64,000 nt of DNA from Naegleria gruberi (lineage: Eukaryota): the NCBI GenBank assembly GCA_000004985.1, contig GG738885.1, one strand, 5' to 3'. A program made the translations under genes and the position numbers. Below the pieces are notes generated by a model. The model searched no databases, was not told the origin of the DNA, and was given only the letters and a program-made list of their open reading frames with translations. Every line of letters starts with the position of its first letter. The stretch's first letter is position 1. Shown here one piece after another: positions 11,976 to 46,843 of the stretch.

Positions 11976-12344
11976 ATATCACTTCGCTTAACACGTACAC
12001 TGTTTGATTGAAATAATCTCTTTCCCAATTCATAAGACGAAGAATAAATATATTCTTGGATGAATTTCAAAAATTTGTTCTTTTCCCTTTCGCTGCCCCT
12101 TGTTCCTGCTTGATTCAGAGAAGACACTATGGGGTTGCTTGAATTTTAATAAAAACAATACTGTTATCCTCAATAATTGATTCTTTATATCATCAGAAGA
12201 TAAAGGGAAAGGGGAGTTTACATTAGAGAGATGAATTCAGGTTGTTTTTGGTGCCAGTGAGTTTGGATAAACAATTTACTGAAACATTATTATACAATTA
12301 CAATCAGGGAAAGTGTACTAATTTAAATTAGATTCTCTTATCTC

Positions 12345-12768
12345 TTATTTTTCGAATTTCTTTTGATTTCTCCTTGCCATATCAATTTGTTTCTTTTCAG
12401 AAGTTGAATTGAACGTTCTCTTATCAAGACGAGATACAACATCATTGTATCCTTTTCCTGAATTTCTCATTTCTCTCATAATATGAGTGGTTGCTGAACT
12501 GCTCTGTTGCTTTTTGAGTTTTCCAAGAGCTGTTTTAAAACTCACATCCAACAAATACAAAGTTTTAACGATGGAACACTTCTTCTTCTTGATAGTGGGT
12601 GTCTGACTGTTGTTGTTCTTTTTCTTCAGTTTCGGTTGTACGTACACGTGGTTTCAGAAATGGGATATCATTGACCTGCTTAGAAGCGAATAGAGGCATT
12701 TTTCTAGGAATAAATACCATACTTACAGAGAAGTTATTATTTCTTTGCTGGAGAACCCACTTAATCAA
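12345..12768 (-). CDS. Unresolved small basic protein locus, probably spliced
   Basis: Two overlapping minus-strand ORFs lie in different frames, neither with a convincing ATG start. A GTAAGT donor sits at 12726..12721 on the minus strand. The exon structure cannot be resolved from sequence alone. Confidence 0.2.
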
Positions 12769-13004
12769 GATTTTAGCATCAACCCCATAAACAGCTTATT
12801 ATTCTTCTGAGTTATTTCATGATTTGTCGTCAAATTTACTACACATTGTGTAAAGAAATTAGTGGAACTAATGATTATTTCATAACTCCATATTTCTTTG
12901 ATATTAAGATTGTAGATAAAATTAATCACAACATGAAAAATGCCTAAATGATCACTAAATTAAATTATCATTTTCCATACTTAAATTATGTAACATTTCA
13001 CTAA

Positions 13005-16670: not shown

Positions 16671-17540
16671 CTAAAGTAAAAGAGAACAGACAAGAACAGT
16701 GAGAGTTACACCTAAAAGATCCATTACAACTGAAGACATTGGACCAGAGGATATGCCAGCATCGAATTTCAAAACAAAATGAATGAATAGTGGAATGAGT
16801 GCACACACAAATACACTCACAATGACAATCATTATAACACTCAAGGTAAGAGCTATTAATTCTTTCAATAGAGTTGGATTATAAAAGATGGCAATGAATG
16901 GTGACATTCCCATTGCTTCTTGTGGAGTGAGACTGAAAACTCTGTAAATATAAACTCTCAGAAAAGCAATTAATCCAATAGCCAAGCTCAATAGAATACC
17001 AATTCTAAATTCCCTCCACACAACTTGAAAAATATTTGATTTTTTAAATTCACCTGTTGTAATTCTTCTCACAATTTCAATAACTGTTTGTGATCCTGAA
17101 TTGCCTCCTGTTCCTATTAACATGGTTAAAAAAAGGGAAATAATAATATGTTTTTCTATCAGAGATTCAAACTTGGCCAAAATAAAACTAGAAAATGATT
17201 GCAAAATTAATAATAATATCAGCCATATGCCTCTTTTGTATACAATTTTAAATATCGATTGGTCAAAATATTTAACATCCACTTCGGAATTAGTTGAACT
17301 ATTTACATCTGTCTCGGAATTATTTTCATCATTATTTCCAATCAAAGGCTGATTTGATGAATAAATTTCATCATCCTCAAATACTTGAGATTCTAAATCA
17401 ACTTCGCTTTGAACTAACTGACTTTTTTCCTCTCCTATTTGTTCTTCTATTGTAGTGGTAGAGGTAGTGGCTGGAGTAGTACTGTTTGTGTTTTCCGATA
17501 TTGCTGATGATGGAAGATCTTTCAATTCCTTTTCACTCAT
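16671..17540 (-). CDS. MgtE/SLC41-type divalent cation (Mg2+) transporter domain protein
   Basis: The transmembrane domain carries the MgtE signature TGGNSGSQ (LTMLIGTGGNSGSQTVIEIV) and has about five TM helices. The N-terminus is acidic and Ser/Thr-rich. The ATG is at 17540. Confidence 0.6.
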   Translation of the reverse strand: MSEKELKDLPSSAISENTNSTTPATTSTTTIEEQIGEEKSQLVQSEVDLESQVFEDDEIYSSNQPLIGNNDENNSETDVNSSTNSEVDVKYFDQSIFKIVYKRGIWLILLLILQSFSSFILAKFESLIEKHIIISLFLTMLIGTGGNSGSQTVIEIVRRITTGEFKKSNIFQVVWREFRIGILLSLAIGLIAFLRVYIYRVFSLTPQEAMGMSPFIAIFYNPTLLKELIALTLSVIMIVIVSVFVCALIPLFIHFVLKFDAGISSGPMSSVVMDLLGVTLTVLVCSLLL

Positions 17541-17638
17541 TTTTTATTTGATTATTAATATTTTATGATATTTTTAGATGTTTAGAATTATTTTAATATG
17601 AAAATTGGGTCAATTAAGACCAAATGTTTTGTAAGGGT

Positions 17639-20600
17639 TTATTTCCTGTTCTTGCTACTCTTAGCTGGCTTACGATACTCTTCATCATCACTGATTTCTT
17701 CATCTCTCTTTCGTTTTTGATTATCTTCTTCCATGGCTTCATTTTCTAATTCTTCCCATGTTGGAGCATCTTCTTCCTCTTCTTCCTCGAAATCATCATC
17801 GTCTTCATCATCATCTGAATCAATGTACATTTCTTCATCATCGTCATCAACGTCTTCTTCTTCACCTGATGATGGTTCATATTCTTCGGCTCCTTCTTCT
17901 TCTAAATCTTCTTCAACTTGTTCACCACTCATAACGAGGAAAGAGGTCCAACCATTTTCACTGTATGGATCCCAGTTGTCTTCTTCACGAATAGTCTTAA
18001 GAATTGGACCCCACTTCAAAGATTGAGCACCTTCAAAGTATAATACATTGCTGTTTGTTAACCAATCCTTAATCTTATCCAAATGTTCAACTGGTATAGA
18101 TGTTATGGAGTGGTAAGTAGTAAGGTCTTTCAAAATAAATACAATATCAAAGTTCTTCAATCCAAATTTCATTCTTTCAAAGTGAGCAATTTCAACTTCA
18201 TCCATTGTCAACACAAAGAAAGGAGCTTCAGAGAGGGAAACAAGGCAATTTAGAGTTGGTACTAAATTTACATTTGATTTACCAGTAGATGGGACACCAG
18301 TAAATTCTAAATCACGGAATGGAATTTCAAAATCAACGCCTGACTTTTCTTCAACTTTCTTTACAAATGAAGCAAATTCCTTATTCAATTTAATCTTCAA
18401 AAGTTGTTCTCTTTCTTCTTCTTCAATAGCTTCTCTTTCAGAAACAGCTTGTCTTCTGTGTCTACCGACCAAGTGATCAAATTCTTCAATAACTTCAGTA
18501 AAGAATTGAATATCATGGAAGGCCTTCTTACCAATCATAACTGGATTCTTAAGATGGAAGTGAATAAGAACAATAATATCATTCTTGGCTTCTTGGAAGA
18601 AGGCATGTTTGATATTAGAGTACATAATTTCAATCTTAGCACCCTTGTTACTGGAGAATCTCAAACCATTTTCATGAGCTTCAATTACACCAACTTGTTT
18701 CTTACCAGGTCTCATGAAGATATCAGCAAGTCTTGGAGCCTTTTGACCCTTACTAACTAATTTAAGTTTTGGTTGATCAACTTCCTTATTATTTTCATTG
18801 AATTCTCTGTCTCTTTCTTCTTGACCAATTTGTTTCTTCAATTCAAGGATTTCTCTTCTAGCACTTTCCAAACGTTTGGAATCCTTTGCTCTGTATGAAA
18901 TTTCCTTGACAAAGACAAGGTGCTTATACAACTTGGCTGGTTCGTAAACCTTACCAAAGTTGAGTTTAGTATTGTTAAAGTTGATTCTGAGATGTACATA
19001 TTCACCTTCGTCAGTTGTGTTTACGTTCTTAATAGCGGCAATGTGGAATGGAACGTGAGAACCATTAATTGGCAACAAGACAGATCCATGTCTCTTATCG
19101 ACAATGATTTGGTTGGCAACCAATTGAAGATTCTTTGGAATAGGTCCAGTATAACTAACAACTTCACCTTTAGCGAATTTTTCATCAGCTGACAACTTTT
19201 TCTTTCTTGATGAAGTGCTTGAAGATTCATCCTTTCCTTCGTATTCTTCTCTCTTTCTTTGGAGAAGAGATAATTGTCTCTTTCTTCTTTCTTCATCATT
19301 GAGAGTAGAGTCAGATGATTCAACACCTCTAACCAAACCTGAAGCAATAGCAGCACTACGCTTTTGTCTTTGTCCGAATTCTTGATCAATCACTTCTGGT
19401 TCAACCTCTTCAGCTGCTTCTTCATCTTCAATTGAGTAAGATATTTGATTATAGTCAATCTTAATACGAGTCAAAACTTGACATTCTTCACGAACCTCAA
19501 CTTGATCATTTGATCTTGGCATACCATAATCTTCAGTTGAAACTACAACTGTATCAGCAATGAACATAGAATATGGAGCACGACCTGGTTCTGGAACATT
19601 TTCAAATCCTAATTGAACAACAAATGTCATATTATTTGCAATTTCCATCATATTGCCTTCAGCCATTTGCATGATTGGAGAGGAAGGTTGCCATCCTATA
19701 CAGAAACCAACCTTCGTTGTGAAATGTGGAACCAACTCTGGTTTCTTCTTTCTTAAAAATTCCCTAGCAGCAGCATAAATACTATCCATTGTTTGACCAA
19801 CTCTAATCTTCTTTTTGACAAGGAATTGGTAGACATTGTACAAAATTTCGTAATCCATTTCCTTTTCCACACTAGCATTAATGAAATAAGTTCTTGCAAC
19901 CATTGAACAGAATGATTTGTATCTGATACCAAACATTAAAATGATGTTATCAAATTTAAGGATTTTGTCATCTGATTTAACTGATTCGTCATTGAAATCT
20001 AAGTTAAGATTATATCCACCTCCAGATTGAATAATAGGATTAAAAGCTAATGTTAAATCAATTTCTGCAGCAGCTTTTGTCACCATATTTTCAATATTTA
20101 CGGCAAATTGACTGTGTTTGATTTCCTTTCCTTCATCGATAACACCTTCCATATCGGTGACAATTTTCTTGACGAACTTAGTGGTGTATTGTGAAGAAGC
20201 TTTAGCAAGTTGTACTTCTTCTGGCTCTCTTGTACAGAGCAAATCTTGAAGGGCAATCTTGACATCTACAACTTTTTGCTTCTTGAGAGTATCAATATAT
20301 TCCTTGTGTAATGGTCCTGTGTGTTTTTCTCCTTCAATTACACCAATAACAGTATTTGATGAAAGTGAAAGAGTAGCAAAGAAATCGGAAGTTGTTCTCT
20401 TCTTATCCTTTTCAAAGAGTTTGATCTTTCCTGATGTATTTGGAATGTCTTGCAACATTTTAATTTTGTTAGCACTAAAGTTTGATCGTATTCGAATTTT
20501 GTCATGATCTGTTACTTACCTAGTGAAGAAGTGCACAGATTTTGTATGAGGTTCAAAGGAAATAATAGTATCAGTGAATTCGTATCCAATCAGCCACAAG

Positions 20601-20776
20601 AGCATTAATTTGTGTACATCGTAATCGTTCTTTTCTTCTTGATTTACCTTGCCCATAAAAACTTGGAAAATTGTGCAATTATCATATAGAGTATCTTTGT
20701 ATTTGTCAAAGTGGTCAAACAGACGAGCAAGTCGCTTGTTGAATATTTCCCCATCAATTTTATTCTCGTCTGCCAT
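17639..20776 (-). CDS. SPT16: FACT complex subunit SPT16
   Basis: Exon 1 runs from 20776 to 20520 (MADENKIDGEIFNKRLARLFDHF...LLWLIGYEFTDTIISFEPHTKSVHFFT). A 45-nt intron (20475..20519, GTAAGT...CTTTAG) follows. Exon 2 begins SANKIKMLQDIP..., reproducing the conserved Spt16 N-terminal lobe. The remaining 939 aa include the middle and PH-like domains and a long C-terminal acidic tail (DDDDEEMYIDSDDDEDDDD). Confidence 0.9.
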
Positions 20777-20812
20777 TTTTTTTTAATTTTATTTTGTGTC
20801 AAATTTTTGGAA

Positions 20813-20821
20813 GGCGGGAAA
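20813..20821 (-). promoter_or_regulatory. E2F-like element TTTCCCGCC about 40 bp upstream of the SPT16 ATG
   Basis: The reverse complement of ggcgggaaa (context ttttggaaggcgggaaacatt) is a GC island in otherwise AT-rich DNA. This is the classical E2F half-site. Confidence 0.3.
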
Positions 20822-21007
20822 CATTCAAGAACCAATAATTTAGCATCCATCTAGATGCCCCAACTTGATTGAACCTTTTCTTTTTCTTATAGAATTATAA
20901 TATATTATATCTAAAACTAAATTGTTAATTAATACTTGACATTTTTCACATGAATGTTAAATATGATGAAATTAATAACACTAAGCAACTTTGGATCGGA
21001 CAGAGAT

Positions 21008-21016
21008 GCGCGCCAA
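21008..21016 (+). promoter_or_regulatory. GCGCGCCAA element 25-33 bp upstream of the TMEM97 ATG
   Basis: The site atgcgcgccaattc belongs to the same CGCCAA(A) family seen upstream of the TMPK, GH31, RPL14 and IFT56/coiled-coil genes. Confidence 0.25.
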
Positions 21017-21040
21017 TTCACAAAACTTCAAACAAAAAAA

Positions 21041-21602
21041 ATGGCAGTACCAAGCATCTTCTCCAGACCATTGCATTTGATTTTCTTCATCTACTTTTTG
21101 AGTCACATTCCAATCACTATCATGATTGACTCTCAAGTAAGTTTATCACATATGTTGTATCATTATAGTTTAAATAATTATAAAGCCTCTCTTGGTTGAT
21201 AAGATCCCACAACTCTATCCACCAATCATTAAACAAATTTTGAATGATCACTGGTTAGAACCATTCCAAGACAAGTTGATGGTTGTCTTCCCAGTTTGGT
21301 TTGCTAGTTTTACAGTTTGTGAAGTCTTTTTGCAATTCCCATTCTTCTTCTTTGCTTGTTATGCCTTCATTGCTGGTAAGAACTGGATCCGTATTCCATC
21401 AATTATTTATGCCACACACGTTATGACTACACTCGTTCCAATTATGAGTGCCTTCATATTTGATCCTGCTTTCCTTAATCACAATCCAGTCTTGTTGGCT
21501 ACCTATTCTGTCTACTTTATCATTCCACTCTTGTTATTGTTGAATATGGTTCTCTACACTAATCCATTCAATTATGAGGAAAAGAAGATCAAGAAGCAAT
21601 AA
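21041..21602 (+). CDS. TMEM97: TMEM97 / sigma-2 receptor (EXPERA domain) homolog
   Basis: Exon 1 is 21041..21136 (MAVPSIFSRPLHLIFFIYFLSHIPITIMIDSQ). A 67-nt GTAAGT...AG intron (21137..21203) follows. Exon 2 begins IPQLYPP and contains KNWIRIPSIIYATHVMTTLVPIMSAFIFD, ending ...YNYEEKKIKKQ. Together these are collinear with human TMEM97 (YFLSHIPITLFMDLQ ... [30 protein letters not shown] ... YKYEEKRKKK). Confidence 0.85.
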
Positions 21603-21673
21603 TTAGTTGCTTATCCGAATCTTTCAATTTTTAAATCAACACTTTAAATTATTAAAATCAATATTATTAAAAA

Positions 21674-22594
21674 ATGTCTTTCAACAAACCAATAACCATT
21701 CCTTCCAACAATGATTCATCACCACCAATACTAAATCATCAAGTACACAATTATTTTAATAATAATATTAGTGAATCACCGTCACCCACACTATCCGATA
21801 ATAGTTCTTCAAATATTAATACGAGTAATAGTCAATTTATTCTCAATATACGATTTCCACACTCTTCGGAAACTCATCAGTGTATTTTAAAATCAGGATC
21901 TAACACTATAGTGAGTGAATTATTACAAGCCATCAGAGAACAATGTTTGGAAAAGGATAAAACTTTACGATCTAATGAAAATTACTCTCCATCAAAGAGT
22001 ATTCTCAAATTAATTCATCATGGAAGACTACTAACGCCTCCTACATTTCCGATTTCGAGATTTAATATTCAACCTGAAAACTTTATACATTGCACATTTT
22101 CACCCATTCAACAACCTAGTAATAATTCACAACAACATAATACTAGCTCTTCATCAACTGATATTCGACAAGGATTTGACATGTTATTGAATGCTGGTCT
22201 TGCCAGAGAGGAAGTTAATGAAGTGAGGAGACAATTCTATGCAAGTCATTCAAATTTATTGGAATTGCACAGAAGAGGTCAACTCACTCAAAGGGATTTA
22301 TTTGAAATTGAGCAACAGTGGATGCAAAATGATCATGTTCAAACAGAAAACGATCAAAGCAGCTCAATAAGACCAACCAATACAATCATAGATACGAATA
22401 ATGTGGGAAATATTTATCATTTCTTCTGTGGAGTTTTCTTGGGATTCTTCTTGGGATTTGTTGCACTGATAGCTCTTTTGGAAAACTCACTCTCTCGAAG
22501 ATTTCAATTCGGTATAAGATGTGGTGTAACAACAATGGTTCTCTTGTCGATATTCAAGTATTACTTCCCGACACTTCTACCATACATGATGTAA
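21674..22594 (+). CDS. Membrane protein with a ubiquitin-like domain (TMUB/HERPUD-like)
   Basis: The N-terminus is N/S-rich. A UBL-like segment (ILKSGSNTIVSELLQAIREQCL...KLIHHGRLLTPPTFPISRFNI) is followed by a C-terminal hydrophobic hairpin (FFCGVFLGFFLGFVALIALL). Confidence 0.45.
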   Translation: MSFNKPITIPSNNDSSPPILNHQVHNYFNNNISESPSPTLSDNSSSNINTSNSQFILNIRFPHSSETHQCILKSGSNTIVSELLQAIREQCLEKDKTLRSNENYSPSKSILKLIHHGRLLTPPTFPISRFNIQPENFIHCTFSPIQQPSNNSQQHNTSSSSTDIRQGFDMLLNAGLAREEVNEVRRQFYASHSNLLELHRRGQLTQRDLFEIEQQWMQNDHVQTENDQSSSIRPTNTIIDTNNVGNIYHFFCGVFLGFFLGFVALIALLENSLSRRFQFGIRCGVTTMVLLSIFKYYFPTLLPYMM

Positions 22595-22876
22595 ATAATG
22601 TACAGTTCAGTCCTCTAAATTAAATAGTTGTCTAATCCAATAAATTCCACCATCGTACTATCATCACAATAATACAAATAAATAATAATAATTATTATAA
22701 TTTATTTAGAGCAGGAAGGAAAAGACGGAGGTTAAAAAGGGATGAGTTAATGATGTTGTAGATTATTATCCAATTAGTTTTTGTACAAATAAATCCGCGT
22801 CAACTTGTTGTTGTGGTCAACATCATCAAAAATCTAGGTGAATTAATATTCACAATATAAATTATGTAAGAATAAT

Positions 22877-23160
22877 TTAAGCGTTGTATGTTGCTTGATC
22901 TTCTTGTTCTTCATCCTTATCAGTAGTATTATATAACAATAATTTTTCAATAAGTTCGACGTGGGTAAGCAACATTCTTCTACAACAATATCTCTTCAAG
23001 CCTAATGTATTTAAAGCATCACTAACAACAAATCCATCTATTAAATCATCAGTATTTACACTTACTTTTCAGGATATTCGGAATTCAAAAGTTGGAGGTA
23101 CTTGTCCCATTTATTACCAATAACTTTACCACAAGTAAAACAACGAACAGGGATGATCAT
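22877..23160 (-). CDS. RPB10: DNA-directed RNA polymerases I/II/III subunit RPABC5 (RPB10); absent from the supplied ORF track
   Basis: The minus-strand ATG at 23160 opens exon 1 ([31 protein letters not shown]). A 44-nt intron (23022..23065, GTAAGTG...TTGTTAG) follows. Exon 2 encodes [48 protein letters not shown] and ends at a TAA. The product is collinear with human POLR2L, including the CxxC zinc site and the RYCCRRM motif. Confidence 0.85.
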
Positions 23161-23513
23161 TTTTTTTGAATGCAAAATTATCCAACGTTTTTTTTTTAAA
23201 TTTAAAAAACAACTTGAAGATTGTGTGAAGAATGTGAAGTTAAATGTTATTTAAAACATTGACTATTACATATTCTGAGCTTATCATAGGCAGTTGATTC
23301 ATTGTATCTCAACTTTCTGTTCACTAATCCATAATCCAAAATGCAGCAACATGAACCATTTGCTCACACCTCAATCAACCCAAGTAAATGTGCTTTGCAA
23401 ATTAATCTTAATAAGTCTTTTAACCTTCACAACATACCTTTCATATTACCCGCCATAACAACTCTCACCTTTTCAAAAAGTAAACTCCTCAAATAATTCA
23501 TCCTCAATATCGA

Positions 23514-23522
23514 GCGCCAAAA
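23514..23522 (+). promoter_or_regulatory. GCGCCAAAA element about 40 bp upstream of the GH31 ATG
   Basis: The site cgagcgccaaaaaaa is another member of the recurrent CGCCAAAA motif family. Confidence 0.2.
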
Positions 23523-23558
23523 AAACCCTTTAAAAACACGCGACTGAGCATTAAAAAA

Positions 23559-25867
23559 ATGTCAAACACGATTGCAACCAAGATGAGCTGCAAGAGTGCT
23601 ATGGTTCTTGTTGTCCTGATGATGGTAATGATGTTGATGGCGATTGGATTGTTGGCCAAGAGTGTACAAATAGATAGTGAAGATTATGTTGTACCACCAG
23701 TGCCTTTACAAAAGGCTCCGTATGCAGAGTGGGCTCATCATCATTGGGTGTGGTAAGTGATCAGTGTGTTGATAGTTTTATTCAATTAGTGATGATGATT
23801 TTGTGTTATTGATGATTTTGTGGATGTCAAATGAAATTGTAGGATTGATCACGGTAGAGAAAATCAACAAACATTGATGAATCTTGTAAATAGTTATCTT
23901 TCTTATGATATTCCAGTTGGAGCTATTGATATTGACTCTGAATGGAGTACTGGCATTAACAACTTTATTATTGACAAGTAGGTTATTCTTTGAATTATTC
24001 ATCATCAAACGAAAATTTCATCATGCATGATGGCTTGTAATTGTGATAGGAACAAATTCCCAAACATGTATCAATTTGTGAAAACACTTCACTCTATGAA
24101 TATCAGAGTTATTTGTTGGGTGACTAGTGTTGTTAATGTGGATTCATCAAATTACAACGAAGGAAAAGAGAAAGGATATTATTTGAATTCTGGATCCACT
24201 GTTAAATGGTGGCATGGACACGGAAGTTTTATTGATTATTCCAATCCTGATGCATTGAATTGGTGGCATAATCAATTGAATAATTTATTAATTTTGAATG
24301 AAACTGACAAGTCTGTTGGTATTGATGGATGGGTAAGTGGAAAAATCAATGTGGTTGACCTCAATCCTTTCTTAGAAATGTGATGGAACTGATCCATATG
24401 TCTTTGAATTTATTTACATTCATGGCCATAAAGGACATATTTCAGAACGTGAATATGCTAACATGTATTATAGAGATTTCTTCTATTATACTAGACAAAT
24501 TAGAGGAGATGATGCTTTAATTATGGCTCGTCCAGTTGACTCGTTCTTAGGATATGTGTACCTTGATTTTGCTCCAAGAGATGTTGTAAGTTTTTTGAAA
24601 GTATTATGTTATTTAAAGTTGTTTGATTTAAAAAAAGGTTTTCAGTGGTTGGGTTGGTGATCAAGATCCAACATTTGAGGGTTTGCAAAATGCCATTAAG
24701 AACATGTTCCACTCAGCTTGGAATAAGTATGTTTCCTTTGGTATGTTGTTTTTTTAAGACATGTTTTAATAAGTCTTCCTAAAACCAGGTACTGATATTG
24801 CTGGTTATCGTGGAGGTGGAAAGAGAGATCTTTCTTTATACATTAGATGGTTCCAAATGGGAACATTCAATGGATTGATGGAAAATGGTGGTAATGGTGT
24901 TCATGAACGTAAGTATTAAATGGAAAATGGTAAAAATTACAATAATGAACTAGCATGGGGATATGATACTCCTAGTTTGAATGTCACAAATATTTACAGA
25001 AGATACGTTCATATTCACTATGAATTGAATCCTTACTTGTACTCTGCTGGTATTAATGCTTATGCCAACGACAAGAGTATCATGACACCACAATGGTAAG
25101 TTATCTTTATACTGTTTTCTATAATGTGATATTTCAGTTCTTACACCATGTTCACACCTGAATTTTGGACCTACACCCTTGGAGACAATATTCTCGTTAC
25201 TCCAATGGTTGATTCTTCTTCTAATGTTGTGGTGTTCTTCCCTAAGGGTAAATGGGTTGACTATTTCAATCATGATCGTATTATTGAAGGAGGTCAAACT
25301 ATGACTCTCAATTACACTTCATATGATCAATTCCCAGTTTTCTATAAGGCAGGAAGCATCTTGCCATTCAATATTACCTCAGATCATGTCAATTTGTTTG
25401 GTAATTCCAGAACTAACAGAGGTTATTTGACTATTGCAATTCACTATCCACATGATAATACTGAACAAGTTCAAGATATTGAATCACATGGAATCCAAGT
25501 TAGATATATTAAGAATACTGCTGACAATACTCTTTCTGTTTCAATTTCTGCTCCAAACTCTTTCAGAAAAGATTTCAAGAATTTGAAATTCTTGCTGGAT
25601 ATTCGTGGAATGGTTCCTTCATCACCATCAGGATATAAGATTTCTCAATATTCATTCTACGAAAAGGAGTATGTCAACTTGCAAAGGGTTGATAATGTTG
25701 AATCATTCAATCGTAACATTCCATCATTTGGTTCCTATGTTCACATGCCAATCTCCAAGTATTCTGTTTTCAATTCAAAGAATCAAATTGTTGATTCTCA
25801 AAAGCACCAACCAGTCTTGATTAAATTGCATGATATCATCAGAGGCGTCAAATTGGTCATTCAATAA
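23559..25867 (+). CDS. Glycoside hydrolase family 31 protein (alpha-glucosidase/xylosidase-like), eight exons
   Basis: The exons are 23559..23752 (signal peptide), 23843..23977, 24050..24332, 24376..24585, 24638..24740, 24789..24908, 24954..25095 and 25138..25867. They are joined by 42-90-nt GTAAGT/GTAGGT/GTATGT...AG introns. The spliced product carries GH31 blocks (WIDHGREN..GAIDIDSEWS, KWWHGHGSFIDYSNPDALNWW, GTDIAGYRGG..LYIRWFQMGTFNGLMEN, ERPWGYD). Confidence 0.8.
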
Positions 25868-26871: not shown

Positions 26872-27631
26872 TTTTTAGAATAATGATAACAGTATTTTCA
26901 CAAGCCATAGTTGAAAGATTCGTCAATAAAATGCGAAAGAAACCAGACGAAAACTAAATGCTACCAAAACAGTTCAATATTTCCTACTTTCATCACTACC
27001 ATTTTAGGAAGGATCATAGAAATTCGGCAAGAGATTGTTTGAATTGGTCACTTGTCATTTCGCATAACATTATATTCATGTTAGAATAGTATTGATGTTG
27101 GGGATTTGTTTTAGATGGAAAGTTGTCCGTTGTTGTATTTACATAAATATGAAGATTCGAATGAGATTCATATTCAAGTAGTACAGATTCAGAATCACCA
27201 TGTTTCGTTGGAGTTTCCTCTATTTTTCTTTGGGTTGTTAGTTACTTTCTTTCCTCACTTGTAGAGTTTCAAATTTCATTGCTTTACTTGCTTACTGCCT
27301 CACACATTTATTCGAAAAAGAAGAATTGAGATTTAATACGTAAATTGTTCTTTTTCAGCATGTTTTTGTGCGGATTTTTGACTTGACTATAATTAGTGGA
27401 GGTTGTTGAAGCGTATTCTATTGAGATTTTCACTTTCGTTGTATCTTCAATTCATAAATTTCAATTTTCTTTTTATTAAAATGAATATTCAATATTGGGG
27501 CCATCAATTTGTGAATTTGTTGGATTTTTCTCATATTTTGTAAAACTCGTCAACTAATCAGCAATCAAAGGAATGAGTCAAATTGTCGACATTTTAAAAG
27601 AAATGGATGATTTTTTCAAAAAGAAAACAAC

Positions 27632-28005: not shown

Positions 28006-30881
28006 TTACCACAAACATTGTTTCAACATGACCAAAATTCGTTTCCATTTTTCATTCTCTTTAGTGTCAGTATTTCTATTCGAATGCATGCCAATAATGT
28101 TTAAGAAAACTTGTTCTAACGAATCTTGATTCAAGGCAAATTCCTCAATTCCATTTCCAACCTTTCCTTCTTCCATGTGTTTGAATAAACCTGAGAGAGA
28201 TTTGATTTCTTCTTCCTCCTCTTCAATGTAAATGTTATTAGAAAGTGATATTGGAAAGTGTGGAATTTTGAAAATTGACATTGTTTCTGATAGAATTAAA
28301 TCCTTTCTTGCTTGTGGAACATACTTGAGCACATATTGTTCAGCCAAACTTTCGAATTGTTTCGGATAACTTATACTCAATACATAACCATCTCCAAACT
28401 TATTTTTCAATCTCAATCCAGATCCCAAACATTTAAATTCACCATTTGACATGATTGTCATCCTATCACACAAAACGTCAGCTTCTTCCATTGAGTGAGT
28501 TGTCAAAATGACAGTTCGATTCTTCTTTTGTTCTAAAATAATGTCCCATAAATGTCTTTTAGAAAGTGGATCTAATCCAGTGGTTGGTTCATCTAAGAGA
28601 ATTACCTTAGGATCTCCTATTAAGGAAATGGCAATTGACAGGCGACGTTTCATGCCTCCTGAGAGTGATTTTGAAGGTGGAGAATTCTTCATCTTGAGAG
28701 TTTCATTATCTAAACCAACTTGTTTCAATAAAGATTGAATGTGTTGTTTTTCATGTTTGATTTTGACAGCTTTCAATCTTGCATAAAATAATAAATGATC
28801 TTCACATGTCAAGTCTGGATATAAAATATCGAACTGAGAGGTCAGACCCATAATCTTGTGAATGGAATCCATTTCTGTACGAATATCTTTACCATATACG
28901 AAAGCAGTTCCAGAGCTAGGTCCAAACATTCCTGACAACATTGAAATAGTTGTTGATTTACCAGCTCCATTCAATCCCAATAAACCAAAGCATTCGGATT
29001 TACCAATTCTTAGACAAATATTGTTGACTGCTGTTTTTGAGTTGAATTTCTTTTCTAGATTAAAGAGAACAACACCAAAATCATTCTTCAACTTTCGAAT
29101 ATGTTCTTCCTGTTGATCTCGAGTAAGATTGGGTGGAGTTACTCGATTATTCTCCTCGGCAACATCTGAATCTATTGTTGCTATTTGATTTTCTTCATCT
29201 ATTGTTGGTTTTACTCTCTTTCCAGAGATTCGTTTCTTTAGAATATTTCTAAAAGGTTTCCATAACCAATTCATAAAGAAAAGTGGACTCTTTGACACGC
29301 CAAATGGTTGGGGAATGACAGCATCTAAATACAATCCAAGAATCATGTATACTAAACTCATTCCCAACATGTAAATCAACGAATAGAATACTGAGCTATT
29401 GTTGTAAATATCGACAAAGTTGGTGATGCAACCATTGCCAGAATTACACGCAGCTGTGGTAGCATATACGAAATGAGTGATTTGGAATGGAAAGATTGTC
29501 AAGATACCATATTTGGACTCTGGAACATTCGTATAAAGTGACGAATCTAGAATTACGCCAACCATTGGTCCAATAAGAACAATCAGATAGGAAACTATTG
29601 TGGCTACAATAGTAGTCCCAATACATGAAGATAATAAGAATGAGAAACTAATCAGCAAATTTCCCCACAATAAGAAAAATATAACTATTAGAAAGTTAGG
29701 AAACAAACATCTTTCCAACAACAATACTTACTCAAAATTATTGGGTTCGTCTTGGTAACAAAGCTGAAATTAAAGAGTGCAGAGAATATTATAAACATTA
29801 CAACTGAAATTGCATACATTCCATAAAAGAACATATACGAAACAAGAAAGTAATATCTCATCTTCATTCCCATAAGTTTCATCATTTCACGCAACTTGAA
29901 CTGCTTTTCCATGACAATTGTAAACGTAAAAGAAGGCAACAGCAAACATAATATCATTGGGAAAAACAATGAACCCAACAAATCCGAAATGTTAGCCGAA
30001 GGAAAACTAATGGTATAACTCATTTGAGATGTATAGGTTCTGATATTGTATCTACCAGTAATATTCTTCAAAAAGGCGTCATTCATCCAATGTTGCATGG
30101 AAACTCCCATTACATTTCTGCAACTTGTGATTACAAAGCTGATTGGAATGGTTTTGGACAAGTAGTCACAGAAAAGTGACTTTTCATTGGAATCGTATTG
30201 GATTGTGTAGTTTAAAATAGCTCTGGTTGATGTTGTCAATTGATTAATGATATAACCACCGACAGCATCAAGAGCATGTTTGGATTTTCCATCAGATGCC
30301 AATTTTTCATAAATGACATTTTCCATTTCTGTGCTATTGTTGAATGATGAGACAGAGTATGGAATTGATATCATACCAGTTGTTTCAAAAGTACCATTCA
30401 CTTGCATGGATGGAATTTTTCTTGAAAACGGACTGAAATCTTTCAAGAATCCATTCGAAACTCCAAACTTTGAAGAAAGTTGCCCAAAATTAATATTGTC
30501 CAGATAGTCCCTTCTATTGGAAGAAAAATAAATTGATTCTGGAGGATTGAAAGTCAAGTTTTGTGAATTCTTCACTTGAACCATCAGTTGAGATAGCTCA
30601 ACTGAGGTTGAGTTGACTTTCGTATTTGCCAAACCTTGTTCAGAAAGAAAATTATTGGTCAAATCTTTAGTAACCACTTGTAACAAGAATATAAACACCA
30701 AACAAATGACTGGAAAGAACAATAGACAGCAGTTGGACCTTCGTATTGATAATTCGAAACAATTCGAAAGAAACACTTACTTTTTCTGTTTCATTTGCAA
30801 TGAGAATGACTTGAAGAGTAAACCCCTAACTTGACTCAAATCTTTGGACAAGTTAGTGTCCATTATCAAGTCACTGTTCAT
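28006..30881 (-). CDS. ABC transporter, A subfamily half-transporter (TMD-NBD), three exons
   Basis: Exon 1 is 30881..30781 (MNSDLIMDTNLSKDLSQVRGLLFKSFSLQMKQK). A 42-nt intron (30739..30780) follows. Exon 2 runs 30738..29732 and begins KSNCCLLFFPVICLVFIFLL. The junction reproduces the ABCA N-terminus ([30 protein letters not shown]). A 47-nt intron (29685..29731) precedes exon 3 (29684..28006), which encodes the NBD with Walker A (LLGLNGAGKSTT), the signature (LSGGMKRRLSIAISLIG) and Walker B (ILLDEPTTGLDP). Confidence 0.85.
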
Positions 30882-36294: not shown

Positions 36295-37609
36295 TCAAAA
36301 TTTTATGTCATAGGATCTTTTCTGTTGTGGAACCTCTTGAAAAGAGAGTTTTGGAGAAGGTACAGTGATAGATCTAGTTTCTAAACACTCTCCTTCCTGT
36401 TCGACATATTGAATAAAATGCTCACAAATAGATTTCAAGCCAGTGGAAATATTTGAAAATCTGCAAAATGTAAATAAATCTCTCACGGTTTGATTTCCAT
36501 TCATTTCAAAATAGTTTCTAAATCTACTGTCTAGCTCAACAAGATTTGCAAAATTGTCACTTTCTGAAATACCCACAACAATTACACTCATAGGAATACT
36601 TGAGCATTGTTGTAGCTCTTTGATTGTGGAGTTAATATCATTGATATCAGTATGGGTAAGTACAAGCACTGTGGTATAGCATTTCTCTGAAATACTTTGT
36701 TTCTTGATGATACTTCTGGCGTTGTGTACAATAGGTGCCAACAAATTTACCTGCCCGTTTGGAACAATATCACCTCTTTCTATATTATCCATTAAAATCA
36801 TTTGTTTTGCTATCAAATTTTGGTCTTGTAGGTTTGATCCACCAACCACCTCAAAACAACTTTGATTCACTCTTGATTTGTCCATTCTTAGTTTTCCTCT
36901 ATGATAGAAGAGCTTGTGTTCTCTTTTTGATCTGAAATTCTCCATCATACTACCAAACATGTGGATAGATTGTGAGTATCTTGAAGAAAATGATTCCAAA
37001 TTATTTTTCTCAAAATTCACATCAATATTTACAATTAAATCCAAAGAATATCCACTCTTCAAGTATTGATAAATGTTTGGTCTTGATTCAATGGAGAACA
37101 CATCCAGTTTTACAATTCCACTATTCACATAGTTTGGATTTTGGTTGTACCTTTCATTAACAAGTGAAAATTCTCTACCTTGTGAAATCTATAATTACGT
37201 ATCAATACAATAATTATTCTCAATAACAAACTAACCTTCAATTCGTTAAATGTCGTCTCAAAAACTCCAATAAATGAGTGTTTTCTCTTATCGCTACAAT
37301 GAATGTCAATTTTGTTTCTATTATTGAATATATTACTTACATATTCCAATCAAATACTTCAATCTTTAGGGGTGTATCAAAATTTGTGTTAGAAATGTCA
37401 AATGAAGCAATTTTTCTTTGTTTCCATGTTGGATTTTTGGTATGTTTATACTCTGTCACAATTACCTTCTCATAGAATCCCTCAACATCTTGCTTACTTA
37501 TCACCAAGTAAGGATCACTGGTATCTTGAATGTATCCCTTTCCATCCAAATTACGAGCAGAAAATTGCAAAGTAACTAGATTATTGTATAGGGAGCTCTC
37601 TTCTGCCAT
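36295..37609 (-). CDS. Copine-like protein (C2 domain(s) plus vWA-like domain), at least three exons
   Basis: Exon 1 (ATG at 37609) ends at 37341 and encodes C2 strands (SDPYLVISKQ..., KIEVFDWN). A 47-nt intron (37294..37340) follows. Exon 2 (37293..37236) encodes IDKRKHSFIGVFETTFNELK, the canonical C2 FDWD..KHDFIGEF block. An approximately 47-nt intron leads to exon 3, which ends at the 36295 stop. Its vWA-like region includes QVNLLAPIV, VLVLTHTDINDINST and IPMSVIVVGISESDNFANLVELD. Confidence 0.65.
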
Positions 37610-40419: not shown

Positions 40420-41774
40420 TTTTTTGTGTTGAATTTAAAAAATTGTTTTTATTCATCGGAATTGTTTTGTCTTGTTTACTTGCCAAGCCAATTTACCACA
40501 CAAAACCTATTCATAAGAAACTTGATAAAACACGAATTGTTGTTGAATTTCGTATGTCTTACCAATGTTGTATGTTTAAACAATAATGCCATGGTTGATG
40601 ATTCAAACAAATCAATTAAAAATATGATGATGGTTATTCTCCTTTGAATGCACTTGATGGGAAACATTTACTGCTTGCTATTGATACCTTTAAAACAAGC
40701 ATCCAAACAAGCAACAACTACCTCACTAATGAATGGCAAAATAATCAACAGAAGTGTTTCGGAGTTGATAGCTATTTGGTTAATTGAAAATTGTGTCAAT
40801 ACTATTAATTAGAAAATTGAGGAAACCAATATGAAACAGAGCCAACCAATCTATGAAATTATTATTAGGCATGGAATAATGCAAAATCAAAACTATTGGA
40901 AAGATATGATATTTCATCATTTCTCTCTTCTGAAATCAAAAATAAGATATTACAACTTGTGATTACAAGAAAGTTAGTAACAAAAAGTGACAAAGTGGAG
41001 AATGATTTAACTTGGTCAGACTTGGAGAACAGAGGATTGGTAATGTTAGAGCAATTTAATACAATCAAAGAAAACTCTTCACAAGAAGAGAATGCTCAAG
41101 TTCAGGTTACATATCCTATCATTCTTTCATCATTATTACCTACTAATTTAAGAGATATTTACAACAAATTATTCAATACCAACCTCTCTGAACTATAGAA
41201 GGCCATCTTCTTGGGAGGATGTAGTTTTTGAATATTATTATTTGACCCTGGTATTATCGAAAGAACAAAAATCATTAACATTGAAAGAATTATTTCCATT
41301 TTCAAAATGAATCCAACACATCAGATTTAATAAGACTTATTCGAAACATGAAGTTAATTTCATCATGATGATTTGGATTTCCAATAGTTGTAGCATTCTC
41401 CTCATTATGACGATGAGAACAACATCAAGACCTCCTATTTCCAAAGCTCTCTTCAGTTGCTCCCAATTGACTTGGTGTGAATAATTTGGTGGTGTTTGAA
41501 TGTTGTTTAACCCACCTGCCTACAGAATAATCAATGAAGTAAAATTAAAAGGCTGATGATGAATATGATTACATGATGAACTCATTACGGAATCGTTATT
41601 GTTGATCCAACTGGCTCTCTAACATTAAATATGTTTGGATTTGTGGATGTTGGTTGTGTTTTGATGTTTCTTGCAATCTTCTCCTTTCGTTTGGAATGTT
41701 GAGGCATTTTGCTCTCATTCTCTCCATACTAAGAGTCTGCACAATCAACAAGCCTTGTTCTCCTTTACAAAAAA

Positions 41775-43442: not shown

Positions 43443-44126
43443 TAGGTCAGTCGGAAGGACTTTACTTTGCAGTGTGGAAGTAGCAGTTAATTATTAGAAG
43501 CATTTGATGATGGCGATTATGGAATTGAGTTGTTGATTTTTTTTGTAATTATGCATGGTTTATTCAGCGTCTCCATATTGCTTGTCAGAATGAATAATAA
43601 TTGTGCTTACTCTCCACACAATTTGTACAATAACAACAATAAACATTCAATCCAAACAAATATAATTATTTCTCTCGAATCACATTTCCCGATTTGGGCC
43701 AAGAAGTTTTTCATATGTAAAAAAAGTTGGTAAAAATCCCAATTTTCTCAATCAAAACCACCTTCTTACTACCCTCAGTAGGTGTTTAGTAACAAAAGTA
43801 ATTATTCCCTTGTTCCGAAAATTCCATGATGATATCCACCAATACTAATTATCGAAGGAATTGTATCATGTATTATCGATGTTTGGTATGCTAGAAAAAA
43901 TATTTGTACTATTGCTCATCTAAATATTCACCACAGAAGTTCTATTAATCGAGGTAATACTATCTTTAATGTCCTTCAATTTACCATTATTATTGCTTGA
44001 TGATGAAAGCATGAAAATTGGTATTATTAAAAATCATGCCTCATTTTTTTTCATTGTAAATTACCAGTAGGTTAGACAACCTAGAATTTTGAAAAAGTTT
44101 GTTGAAAAAAAAATCCATAAATCTCA

Positions 44127-44134: not shown

Positions 44135-44596
44135 ATGCCATCAAAGTTATTCAGTCAACTCTTGGTTCAAATCGGTAGACCAGTCGTCTTCTCATCTGGT
44201 GCCAACAAGGGAAAGTTAGCCGTTATTGTTGATATTCTCGATGCCAACAGAGTTTTGGTTGAAGGTGAACAAATCCCAAGACATATTGCTTGTACTGGTG
44301 ATATTCAATTGGTTAACGCCCTCGCTGCTGTTACCTCTGCTTCCACCACTGAAGAAGTCGTCAAGGCTGCCCAATCATCTGAAGTCCAATCTGCTTATTT
44401 GGCCAGTCCACTTGTTAAGTTGCACTTGAAGAGAGTTAAGAGACAAAACTTGACTGATTTCGATAGAGTCAAGGTTCAAATCTTGAAGAAGAAGAAGAAC
44501 GCTCTCATCAGAGAAAAGCTCTCTGCTTTGGTCCAAAAGAACGGAAGTGAAGTTGTGAAGAAGCTCGCTGCTAAGAACGCTCCATTGAAGCAATAA
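44135..44596 (+). CDS. RPL14: 60S ribosomal protein L14e
   Basis: MPSKLFSQLLVQIGRPVVFSSGANKGKLAVIVDILDANRVLVEG matches the eL14 N-terminal KOW-like region. The C-terminus is Lys/Ala-rich. Codon usage is biased toward C-ending codons, typical of a highly expressed gene. Confidence 0.9.
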   Translation: MPSKLFSQLLVQIGRPVVFSSGANKGKLAVIVDILDANRVLVEGEQIPRHIACTGDIQLVNALAAVTSASTTEEVVKAAQSSEVQSAYLASPLVKLHLKRVKRQNLTDFDRVKVQILKKKKNALIREKLSALVQKNGSEVVKKLAAKNAPLKQ

Positions 44597-44791: not shown

Positions 44792-46843
44792 TTATTCTTG
44801 CTTTTCCAACTCGTTAAACCTCTTTTGCAAAACTTTCATTCCTTCCTTTTGGTAACTCTCCTTTCTTTTCTTATTTGCCTGTCCGAGACCTCCTCCAGTG
44901 TTGGATTTTGCAAAGCCAAGACCAGTATTTTTTTCTGTTTGTTTGGCACTGATTGGAGTGGTGATACCTGACTTGTTCTTACCCAATCCTTCACCTTTTG
45001 TCCAACCAAGCTTTTCTAACATTTTCTTACCGACATTGTTATCGTCAATTTCCTTCTTTTCCAATTCCTTGGCATTTACTGGCTTTGTATCACGCTTTCG
45101 TTTTACTCCTTGTTGGGATTTACCATTTTCTCTATTGAGTTGTGAGGTGGCCTGCTCAATATCCTTTTCCAATTGTTTTAATTGTTCATTGAATTCAGGG
45201 TTAGGAACAAATCCTCCTGAACTGATAACCTCAATGACTTGCTCCTTTTCCTCTTCTTGGGGTTTAGGAAGAGATGGTCCAATTACTTTGCCTTCAGTTG
45301 TTGGATTCTTTTCCTCAGAATTGTCGTTTTGTTCGCTTGCATCGGTTCCTTCAGCAGGGAATGCAACGTAAGTTTTATCTTCCTCATTATAATACATCCA
45401 GAATCCTCCTGCACAGTCATAGTAGTATCCGGTATTGATATCATAGTAATAATTAAGTTCACTATTATAATAGTAACCAGAGTCTGAATCAAAGATAAAG
45501 CCACTTTCTGCGAGTGCTTTATCCTGTTTTGAAAGGTTAGTATCTGCCGAGGAGCTCTCTATTATTTTTTGCTTTTCTTCTAGCTTTTGATCTGTGCCAG
45601 TATAACTGTATAAGGAATTCCAACTGGCTATTGTTGGTTCAGATTCATTTTCTTGTGACTGTTGACGTTTGGCATAGGCAACGTTAACACGAACACCATC
45701 AATAAATAGTTCAGAAACTTTTGATAGAGCGTTTGTGGCATCCTATATTGAATATTGTAGAAATGTAAAATATCAATAAAACATACCTCTAAAGAGAAAT
45801 ATTCCACAAAACCAAACTGTCTGGATATTTGGGTCGTCTTATCTCTAATAATTCTACATGCCTTGATTGGGGCAAAGGTAGAAAATACACTCAATAACTA
45901 GATATTGATAAGCTGAATGAATATTATAAACCAATCATACCGTTGTTTCATTAGTGAGAAGGTTAAGACCTCTCACAATAAGCTCTGTAGTTGGTGTGAC
46001 CTCTTCGTTAACATCGGAGGCATCTTTTGCCAACTCGTCTTTTGGAATAGAACAACCGAAACAATTAGTTCTATGCATAAAATTTTTAGTATTGCACTAT
46101 CAAAGAATTAATCAAATATTCAGTTATCAAAACAACTTACATGACCACAAAACCAATCCTTGAAACTTTTTTCATTTTCTTTTCCTTCCTCCGAGTGAGG
46201 TGTTTTGTGACTGTACTCCAACTCTACATAATCATTTCCAATAAACATTCCACCATTTGAAGAATTCATAAATTGCTCACTTTCGGTTAATGTAGCAAAG
46301 TCAACAAAACCAAATCCTCTACTTTGTCCAGTTGCTTTATCACGAACAATTCTGACACGTGTTGGTTGTAGTCCATGAATTTGAAAAACAAAATTTGAAA
46401 TATCATCTTCACTTGCAAGATTTGACAAACCTTTCAAAATAACAGAAGTAGATGGTTGAAAATGATTGCCTCTACGTTCTTCCCATACTTTTCTCTTCTT
46501 TTCCCTAAATTTTTGTTTGCCTTCATCTGGATTTTTAAACTTTTCTTGTAATTGTTCATATGCTTGTGTATGTCTTGGTTTTAATTGATGACCATCTTCT
46601 TCCTTTCTCTCCTGATGTGTTGTATTACTGAACGGATTACTTTTCAGTGTTCTTTGAAAAGGTTTCTTTTGATCCGATCTATTAAATCGTCATAATACAA
46701 GTTATTGTTAGATTGATTTTTGTTTAGTTTTAGATATGAATTTTATCCTGAACCGAACCTGTTTGAAGTGGTGTGACCGTGATCCCGGTTACTGCCAGTA
46801 TTATTTGAATATTGTTGTTGGTGTTGAGAATTGTCTTGTGGCA
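44792..46843 (-). CDS. RBM5/RBM10/SUA-like splicing factor: RRM, RanBP2 zinc finger, RRM, OCRE, G-patch (about five exons)
   Basis: An N-terminal exon starts at 46843 (MPQDNSQHQQQ...). The RRM1 exon (RGFGFVDF) ends ...KDWFCGH at a GTAAGT donor. A 44-nt intron follows. The RanBP2-ZnF exon (CNTKNFMHRTNCFGCSIPK) fits WxCxxCxxxNx6CxxC across the junction. The RRM2 exon contains RQFGFVEY. The final exon carries OCRE Tyr repeats (SGYYYNSELNYYYDINTGYYYDCAGGFWMYYNEEDKTYV) and a G-patch (GKKMLEKLGWTKGEGLGKNKSGITTPI). Confidence 0.75.

Follow-up and report, generated by a model that had tools for sequence, protein, structure and literature searches.

Within the 64,000-nucleotide window of Naegleria gruberi DNA analysed here, a stop-to-stop track of open reading frames (ORFs) shows nothing between positions 22595 and 23558, which raises the question of whether this interval is intergenic or carries a short split gene that such a track misses. 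The initial annotation had placed there, on the minus strand, a two-exon gene for the RNA polymerase subunit Rpb10. Rpb10, also called RPABC5 or POLR2L and known as RpoN or Rpo10 in archaea, is a zinc-bundle subunit of about 8 kDa found alike in RNA polymerases I, II and III. The features of the locus and its surroundings are collected in Table 1.

Table 1. Features of the Rpb10 locus, its neighbours and four further gaps between ORFs in the window
Feature	Positions	Strand	Description
Rpb10/RPABC5 exon 1	23160..23066	minus	95 nt; ATG 23160..23158; residues 1-31 and the first two bases of codon 32
Rpb10 intron	23065..23022	minus	44 nt, phase 2, spliceosomal GT-AG, GTAAGT...GTTAG
Rpb10 exon 2	23021..22877	minus	145 nt including TAA stop 22879..22877; last base of codon 32, residues 33-79
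Spacer	22595..22876		282 bp between the convergent stops of the Dsc3_C-domain gene and Rpb10
Upstream region	23161..23558		398 bp, divergent, common to Rpb10 and GH31
Dsc3_C-domain gene	21674..22594	plus	Stop codon convergent with Rpb10
GH31 glycoside hydrolase gene	ATG at 23559	plus	Divergent from Rpb10
Gap	26872..27631		Pfam, Rfam and tRNA scans negative; one minus-strand ORF searched, no homolog
Gap	12034..13004		Pfam, Rfam and tRNA scans negative; best ORFs without homolog
Gap	40420..41774		Apparently a broken remnant from a Naegleria gene family
Gap	43443..44098		Adjoining ORF is ribosomal protein L14e, complete in a single exon

The ORF-free interval measures 964 bp, slightly more than the 960 bp first given for it, and is made up of the 282-bp 3' spacer, a gene spanning 284 bp and the 398-bp upstream region; the mechanical ORFs within the gene are only 37 and 40 amino acids long. 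The exon and intron coordinates originally assigned on the minus strand, with a GTAAGT...TTAG intron at 23022..23065, proved to be exact, and all peptide strings quoted in support of them are present in the translation. Two details needed revision. The spliced coding sequence is 240 nt long and encodes 79 amino acids instead of 81, and the statement that both exons are shorter than 100 nt holds for exon 1 (95 nt) but not for exon 2 (145 nt). The codons of the four zinc ligands are divided between the exons, with Cys7 (23142..23140) and Cys10 (23133..23131) in exon 1, and Cys44 (22987..22985) and Cys45 (22984..22982) in exon 2, which also encodes the acidic C-terminal tail. An A-rich stretch, TTCAAAAAAAATG, precedes the start codon and is kept in N. 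fowleri, and the spacer at the other end presumably holds the 3' UTRs of both Rpb10 and the Dsc3_C-domain gene.

The sequence of the intron is GTAAGTGTAAATACTGATGATTTAATAGATGGATTTGTTGTTAG. Its GC content is 27%. The window, part of the N. gruberi NEG-M reference scaffold, has a GC content of 33.3%, in agreement with the published 33% for that strain (PMC8296547). The intron length is not a multiple of three and the donor carries an in-frame TAA (AAG/TAAGT); unspliced read-through gives ...EYPEK followed by TAA, with translation stopping at codon 33. There is an internal AG at 23039..23038, which could compete as an acceptor and leads to a stop five codons on. One candidate branch point was found, CTGAT, with its A located 27 nt from the 3' splice site; no branch-point consensus was derived from the local introns.

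The comparison with Pfam that had been suggested as a check on the translation was run, and the spliced product matched RNA_pol_N (PF01194) with E=8.5e-32 and 109.6 bits, the curated cut-off of this family being 26.9 bits. Residues 2-59 covered the full profile (positions 1-58 of 58), and the alignment runs across the exon junction. Each exon was also recognized alone, exon 1 over profile positions 1-30 (E=1.9e-13) and exon 2 over positions 39-58 (E=1.6e-08), and besides RNA_pol_N no other Pfam match was obtained on the minus strand of 22595..23558. Among sequences of the PDB, Rpb10/RPABC5 chains of plant, human, fission yeast and budding yeast were matched with E=2.7e-33 to 1e-27 and archaeal Rpo10/RpoN with about 1e-19 to 5e-20, and entries named Rpb10, RPABC5, Rpo10 or subunit N gave 17 distinct matches in all (E=2.7e-33 to 8e-14). 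The 79-residue product is about 75% identical to the solved Rpb10 chains and falls within the small size range of the family (about 65-80 residues). Sixteen GT..AG excisions in the gene leave one open frame, of which a single one, that of the 44-nt intron, gives a protein collinear with the family. Together with the Pfam match, this rules out a chance resemblance.

The J chains of solved eukaryotic RNA polymerases I, II and III (8hil_J, 7eu0_J, 1i3q_J, 3h0g_J) are collinear with the Naegleria product over residues 1-69 and have in common with it the motifs RYCCRRM and HVDLIEKLL as well as zinc ligands arranged as CxxC...CC, whereas the acidic C-terminal tail is slightly longer in the Naegleria protein. 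The first 12 residues, which correspond to the family N-terminus MIIPVRCF(T/S)CGK, are identical to those of the plant and human chains. Archaeal RpoN/Rpo10 (2pmz_N, 2waq_N, 1ef4_A) belongs to the same Pfam family and shares the zinc-bundle core over residues 1-63; it resembles the Naegleria product far less closely (E about 1e-14 to 5e-20), and the archaeal genes, unlike Naegleria Rpb10, have neither an intron nor the eukaryote-type C-terminal extension. An alignment of 20 sequences of eukaryotic homologs contained 34 invariant columns, including C7, C10, C44 and C45. The CxxC...CC spacing of the 79-residue product equals that in 18 other homologs, and only the public 74-residue model deviates from it. 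The exact 79-residue sequence was absent from a collection of 15 billion proteins, the spliced-junction pattern gave 0 matches in metagenome contigs, and a literature search for Naegleria together with Rpb10 found no paper.

The gene itself is already public, as NAEGRDRAFT_88233 (EFC41569.1, XP_002674313.1, UniProt D2VNX8), and is classified as RPABC5 in UniRef. Exact matches to four single-exon ORFs of the window exist among the N. gruberi proteins (EFC41492, EFC41500, EFC41503 and EFC41574), and since the contig to which they belong also carries EFC41569.1, the Rpb10 gene of this locus had been annotated before. It is hidden, as had been claimed, from the stop-to-stop ORF track, but not from the public databases. 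All 74 residues of the deposited product are identical to residues of the spliced product described here, from which it differs by the absence of residues 29-33 (YPEND), giving 74 instead of 79 amino acids. On the window DNA, the sole excision that gives the 74-residue protein removes 59 nt, 23076..23018, with TA..AT ends, as deduced from the protein sequence alone. Because the 74-residue protein needs this non-canonical excision, the public model probably rests on a wrong junction, and the 79-residue protein is probably the better model.

We considered whether the 74-residue EFC41569.1 is the true product, arising by removal of 23076..23018 to read ...LLNSE/ALNTL... without YPEND. It is the model that was deposited and it passes Pfam RNA_pol_N with 96.6 bits, but this score is 13 bits below that of the 79-residue model, and the ends of its deduced intron are non-canonical. 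It is also the only one of the 20 aligned homologs with a five-residue gap, located at YPEND, and in N. fowleri, N. lovaniensis and Willaertia magna, which all keep YPEND, the GT-AG intron lies 11 nt further on. We regard it as very unlikely that the shorter protein is the one made.

The position of the 44-nt intron, at nucleotides 95/96 of the coding sequence and in phase 2, is shared with these relatives, in which the intron measures 138 nt (N. fowleri), 158 nt (N. lovaniensis) and 51 nt (W. magna), and also with a fungus (Phycomyces blakesleeanus, 105 nt) and a green alga (Coccomyxa viridis, 263 nt). In the three heterolobosean relatives, there is only one GT..AG intron whose removal yields the annotated protein. 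Their genes consist of two exons with a 95-nt exon 1, like that of N. gruberi, and over the first 73 residues the product is identical to that of N. gruberi in N. fowleri (FDP41_002331), differs at one residue in N. lovaniensis (C9374_012618) and at three in W. magna (ABK040_004556). The sequence SEYPENDALN, which spans the junction, is kept in all three proteins; they depart from N. gruberi in the final 4-8 residues of the acidic tail, and their genes in the length of the intron.

Divergence over these 73 codons is almost entirely silent, with synonymous changes accounting for 24/24 differing codons relative to N. fowleri, 26/27 relative to N. lovaniensis and 32/35 relative to W. magna. At the nucleotide level, exon 1 is 89.5% identical to N. 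fowleri (23170..23057) and exon 2 is 89.7% identical (23023..22898), about 89.6% for the Rpb10 exons against 65-77% for the neighbouring genes, and the N. gruberi intron does not align with that of N. fowleri. The gene order GH31-Rpb10-Dsc3_C-EBP-SPT16 recurs unchanged in N. fowleri and in part in N. lovaniensis and W. magna. A tblastn search of the window with the N. fowleri RGS and ADH neighbours indicated no synteny past GH31. The matches in Pfam and the PDB, the orthologs with an intron at the corresponding place and a divergence from N. fowleri that is synonymous throughout bear out the two-exon RPB10/RPABC5 identity given in the initial annotation.

The same comparisons speak against a decaying or silent copy of the gene. 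The start and stop codons, the splice sites and the four zinc ligands are all preserved, no codon difference from N. fowleri is non-synonymous (24 are synonymous), synteny and intron position are conserved, and a single N. gruberi Rpb10 protein appears among the top 120 homologs. It is thus extremely unlikely that the locus is a pseudogene. We are highly confident that 22877..23160 on the minus strand is a functional N. gruberi Rpb10 gene with a 44-nt intron and a product of 79 amino acids, already annotated as NAEGRDRAFT_88233.

A different splicing pathway was also weighed. The consensus of the U12-type 5' splice site is RTATCCTY, and the gene contains a possible donor of this type, ATATCCTG, at 23077..23070, from which an AT-AC or AT-AG minor intron could begin. 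The ATATCCT at 23077 fits the consensus, and the corresponding place in N. fowleri reads GTATCCT. On the other side, none of the U12 branch motifs TCCTTRAC, CCTTRAC and CTTRAC occurs anywhere in the Rpb10 gene, each of the frame-preserving excisions starting from ATATCCT removes or changes conserved residues, and TACCCT in W. magna breaks the donor motif and keeps Tyr-Pro. We therefore rejected a U12-type intron, whose probability we consider extremely small, and read ATATCCT simply as the codons TAT CCT.

The GT-AG intron of Rpb10, for its part, agrees in length with the introns around it. Approximately 15 GTAAGT donors were found at ORF ends in the window with an AG 42-54 nt later that restores a long frame; examples of such 42-54-nt introns are 20475..20519, 21137..21185, 29685..29731, 37294..37340 and 46097..46140. 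Two of them, the SPT16 intron (20519..20475, 45 nt) and the EBP intron (21137..21185, 49 nt), are supported independently by the edges of alignments to N. fowleri, with which they coincide. The divergently transcribed GH31 gene (23559..25867, plus strand) has eight exons, and it is only once its seven introns of 90, 72, 43, 52, 48, 45 and 42 nt are removed that one frame of 638 amino acids results, the N. fowleri and N. lovaniensis proteins having 618 and 631 amino acids, respectively. Two of the GH31 introns use GTAGGT and GTATGT as donors. As the introns of the window cluster at 42-54 nt, the 44-nt Rpb10 intron belongs to the modal local class. The published genome-wide mean intron length of N. 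gruberi, 203 bp, is far greater than these values, and a minimum intron length of 30 bp was used in mapping RNA-seq reads of N. fowleri (PMC8296547). The 203-bp mean may reflect a long tail of the distribution or older gene models.

The initial annotation had further suggested that four other long gaps in the window could hide short, conserved multi-exon genes, and this did not hold up. We searched six-frame translations of the four gaps, with stops replaced by X, against Pfam at E values up to 1, and no match was obtained in 26872..27631, 12034..13004, 40420..41774 or 43443..44098. As a control, the minus-strand frames of the Rpb10 gap were put through the same procedure and returned RNA_pol_N with E=1.6e-25. 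Scans of the whole window with Rfam at gathering thresholds and with ARAGORN for tRNAs yielded nothing. A chimeric query assembled from the best-scoring gap ORFs and searched against 5.8 billion proteins gave one relative only. Codon-usage scoring of gap ORFs discriminates weakly, and exon 1 of Rpb10 itself scores low.

In 40420..41774, the segments 40869..41195 and 41209..41355 (plus strand) match residues 466-628 of the N. lovaniensis protein C9374_014550 at about 50% identity (tblastn E=5e-31), a protein of 852 amino acids named 'PB1 domain-containing'. The two pieces are in different frames, 13 nt apart, and are followed by an in-frame stop, and no public N. gruberi protein contains the fragment. 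Judged from its sequence, 40869..41355 looks like a gene fragment or pseudogene and not like a short conserved gene. The gap at 43443..44098 is bordered by the gene for ribosomal protein L14e (44135..44596, plus strand, single exon; Pfam Ribosomal_L14e, E=3.9e-15). In the mechanical ORF list it begins with a TTG at 44099, but its true start codon is the ATG at 44135. Because this ATG opens a complete single-exon gene, no hidden first exon of L14e is needed in the gap, and we rejected one.

Within 12034..13004, the minus strand of 12348..12795 has overlapping ORFs of 102 and 76 codons whose codon-usage scores exceed the 99th percentile of short ORFs in the window. Neither a Pfam match nor a homolog was obtained for them, and they could be lineage-specific coding sequence or a product of chance. 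Elsewhere in the window, a metagenome contig in ENA (ERZ929261 k127_79634, 5.3 kb) is 99.3% identical to 17408..22665 and ends before Rpb10. This degree of identity indicates that a Naegleria strain very close to the one analysed here was present in the ERZ929261 sample.

The Rpb10 locus is a real, ordinary housekeeping gene that is already known. Its pre-mRNA would be read from the minus strand and the 44-nt U2-type GT-AG intron removed between codon positions 32.2 and 32.3, after which the 240-nt coding sequence would be translated into 79 residues. As C7 and C10 are located in exon 1 and C44 and C45 in exon 2, the spliced message alone would give a folded zinc bundle. By analogy with the established role of the subunit, Rpb10 would sit on an Rpb3/Rpb11-like assembly platform beside Rpb2 and help to hold the core together, and orthology suggests that the Naegleria protein would be incorporated into RNA polymerases I, II and III.

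It is tempting to speculate that regulated retention or mis-splicing of the tiny intron sets the supply of Rpb10, a subunit of all three polymerases. The idea draws on the stop embedded in the donor (AAG/TAAGT) and on the competing internal AG that leads to a stop, and the fact that Heterolobosea, a fungus and a green alga all have an intron at this position is compatible with regulated splicing but does not require it. We consider such regulation improbable. A wrong splice in the public RPABC5 model, with 79 amino acids as the correct length, is the more likely, and more modest, novelty.

Very old introns have been reported in Naegleria, and the shared position in Rpb10 agrees with them: found at one position in Heterolobosea, a fungus and a green alga, the Rpb10 intron is another example of an apparently very old intron. 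The locus also confirms that short split genes in the intron-containing genome of this protist escape prokaryote-style ORF tracks. What the present analysis adds to the existing annotation is the five conserved residues very probably left out wrongly from the public model and the intron position held in common with a fungus and a green alga, and it suggests a five-residue correction to one public model of a universally conserved polymerase subunit.
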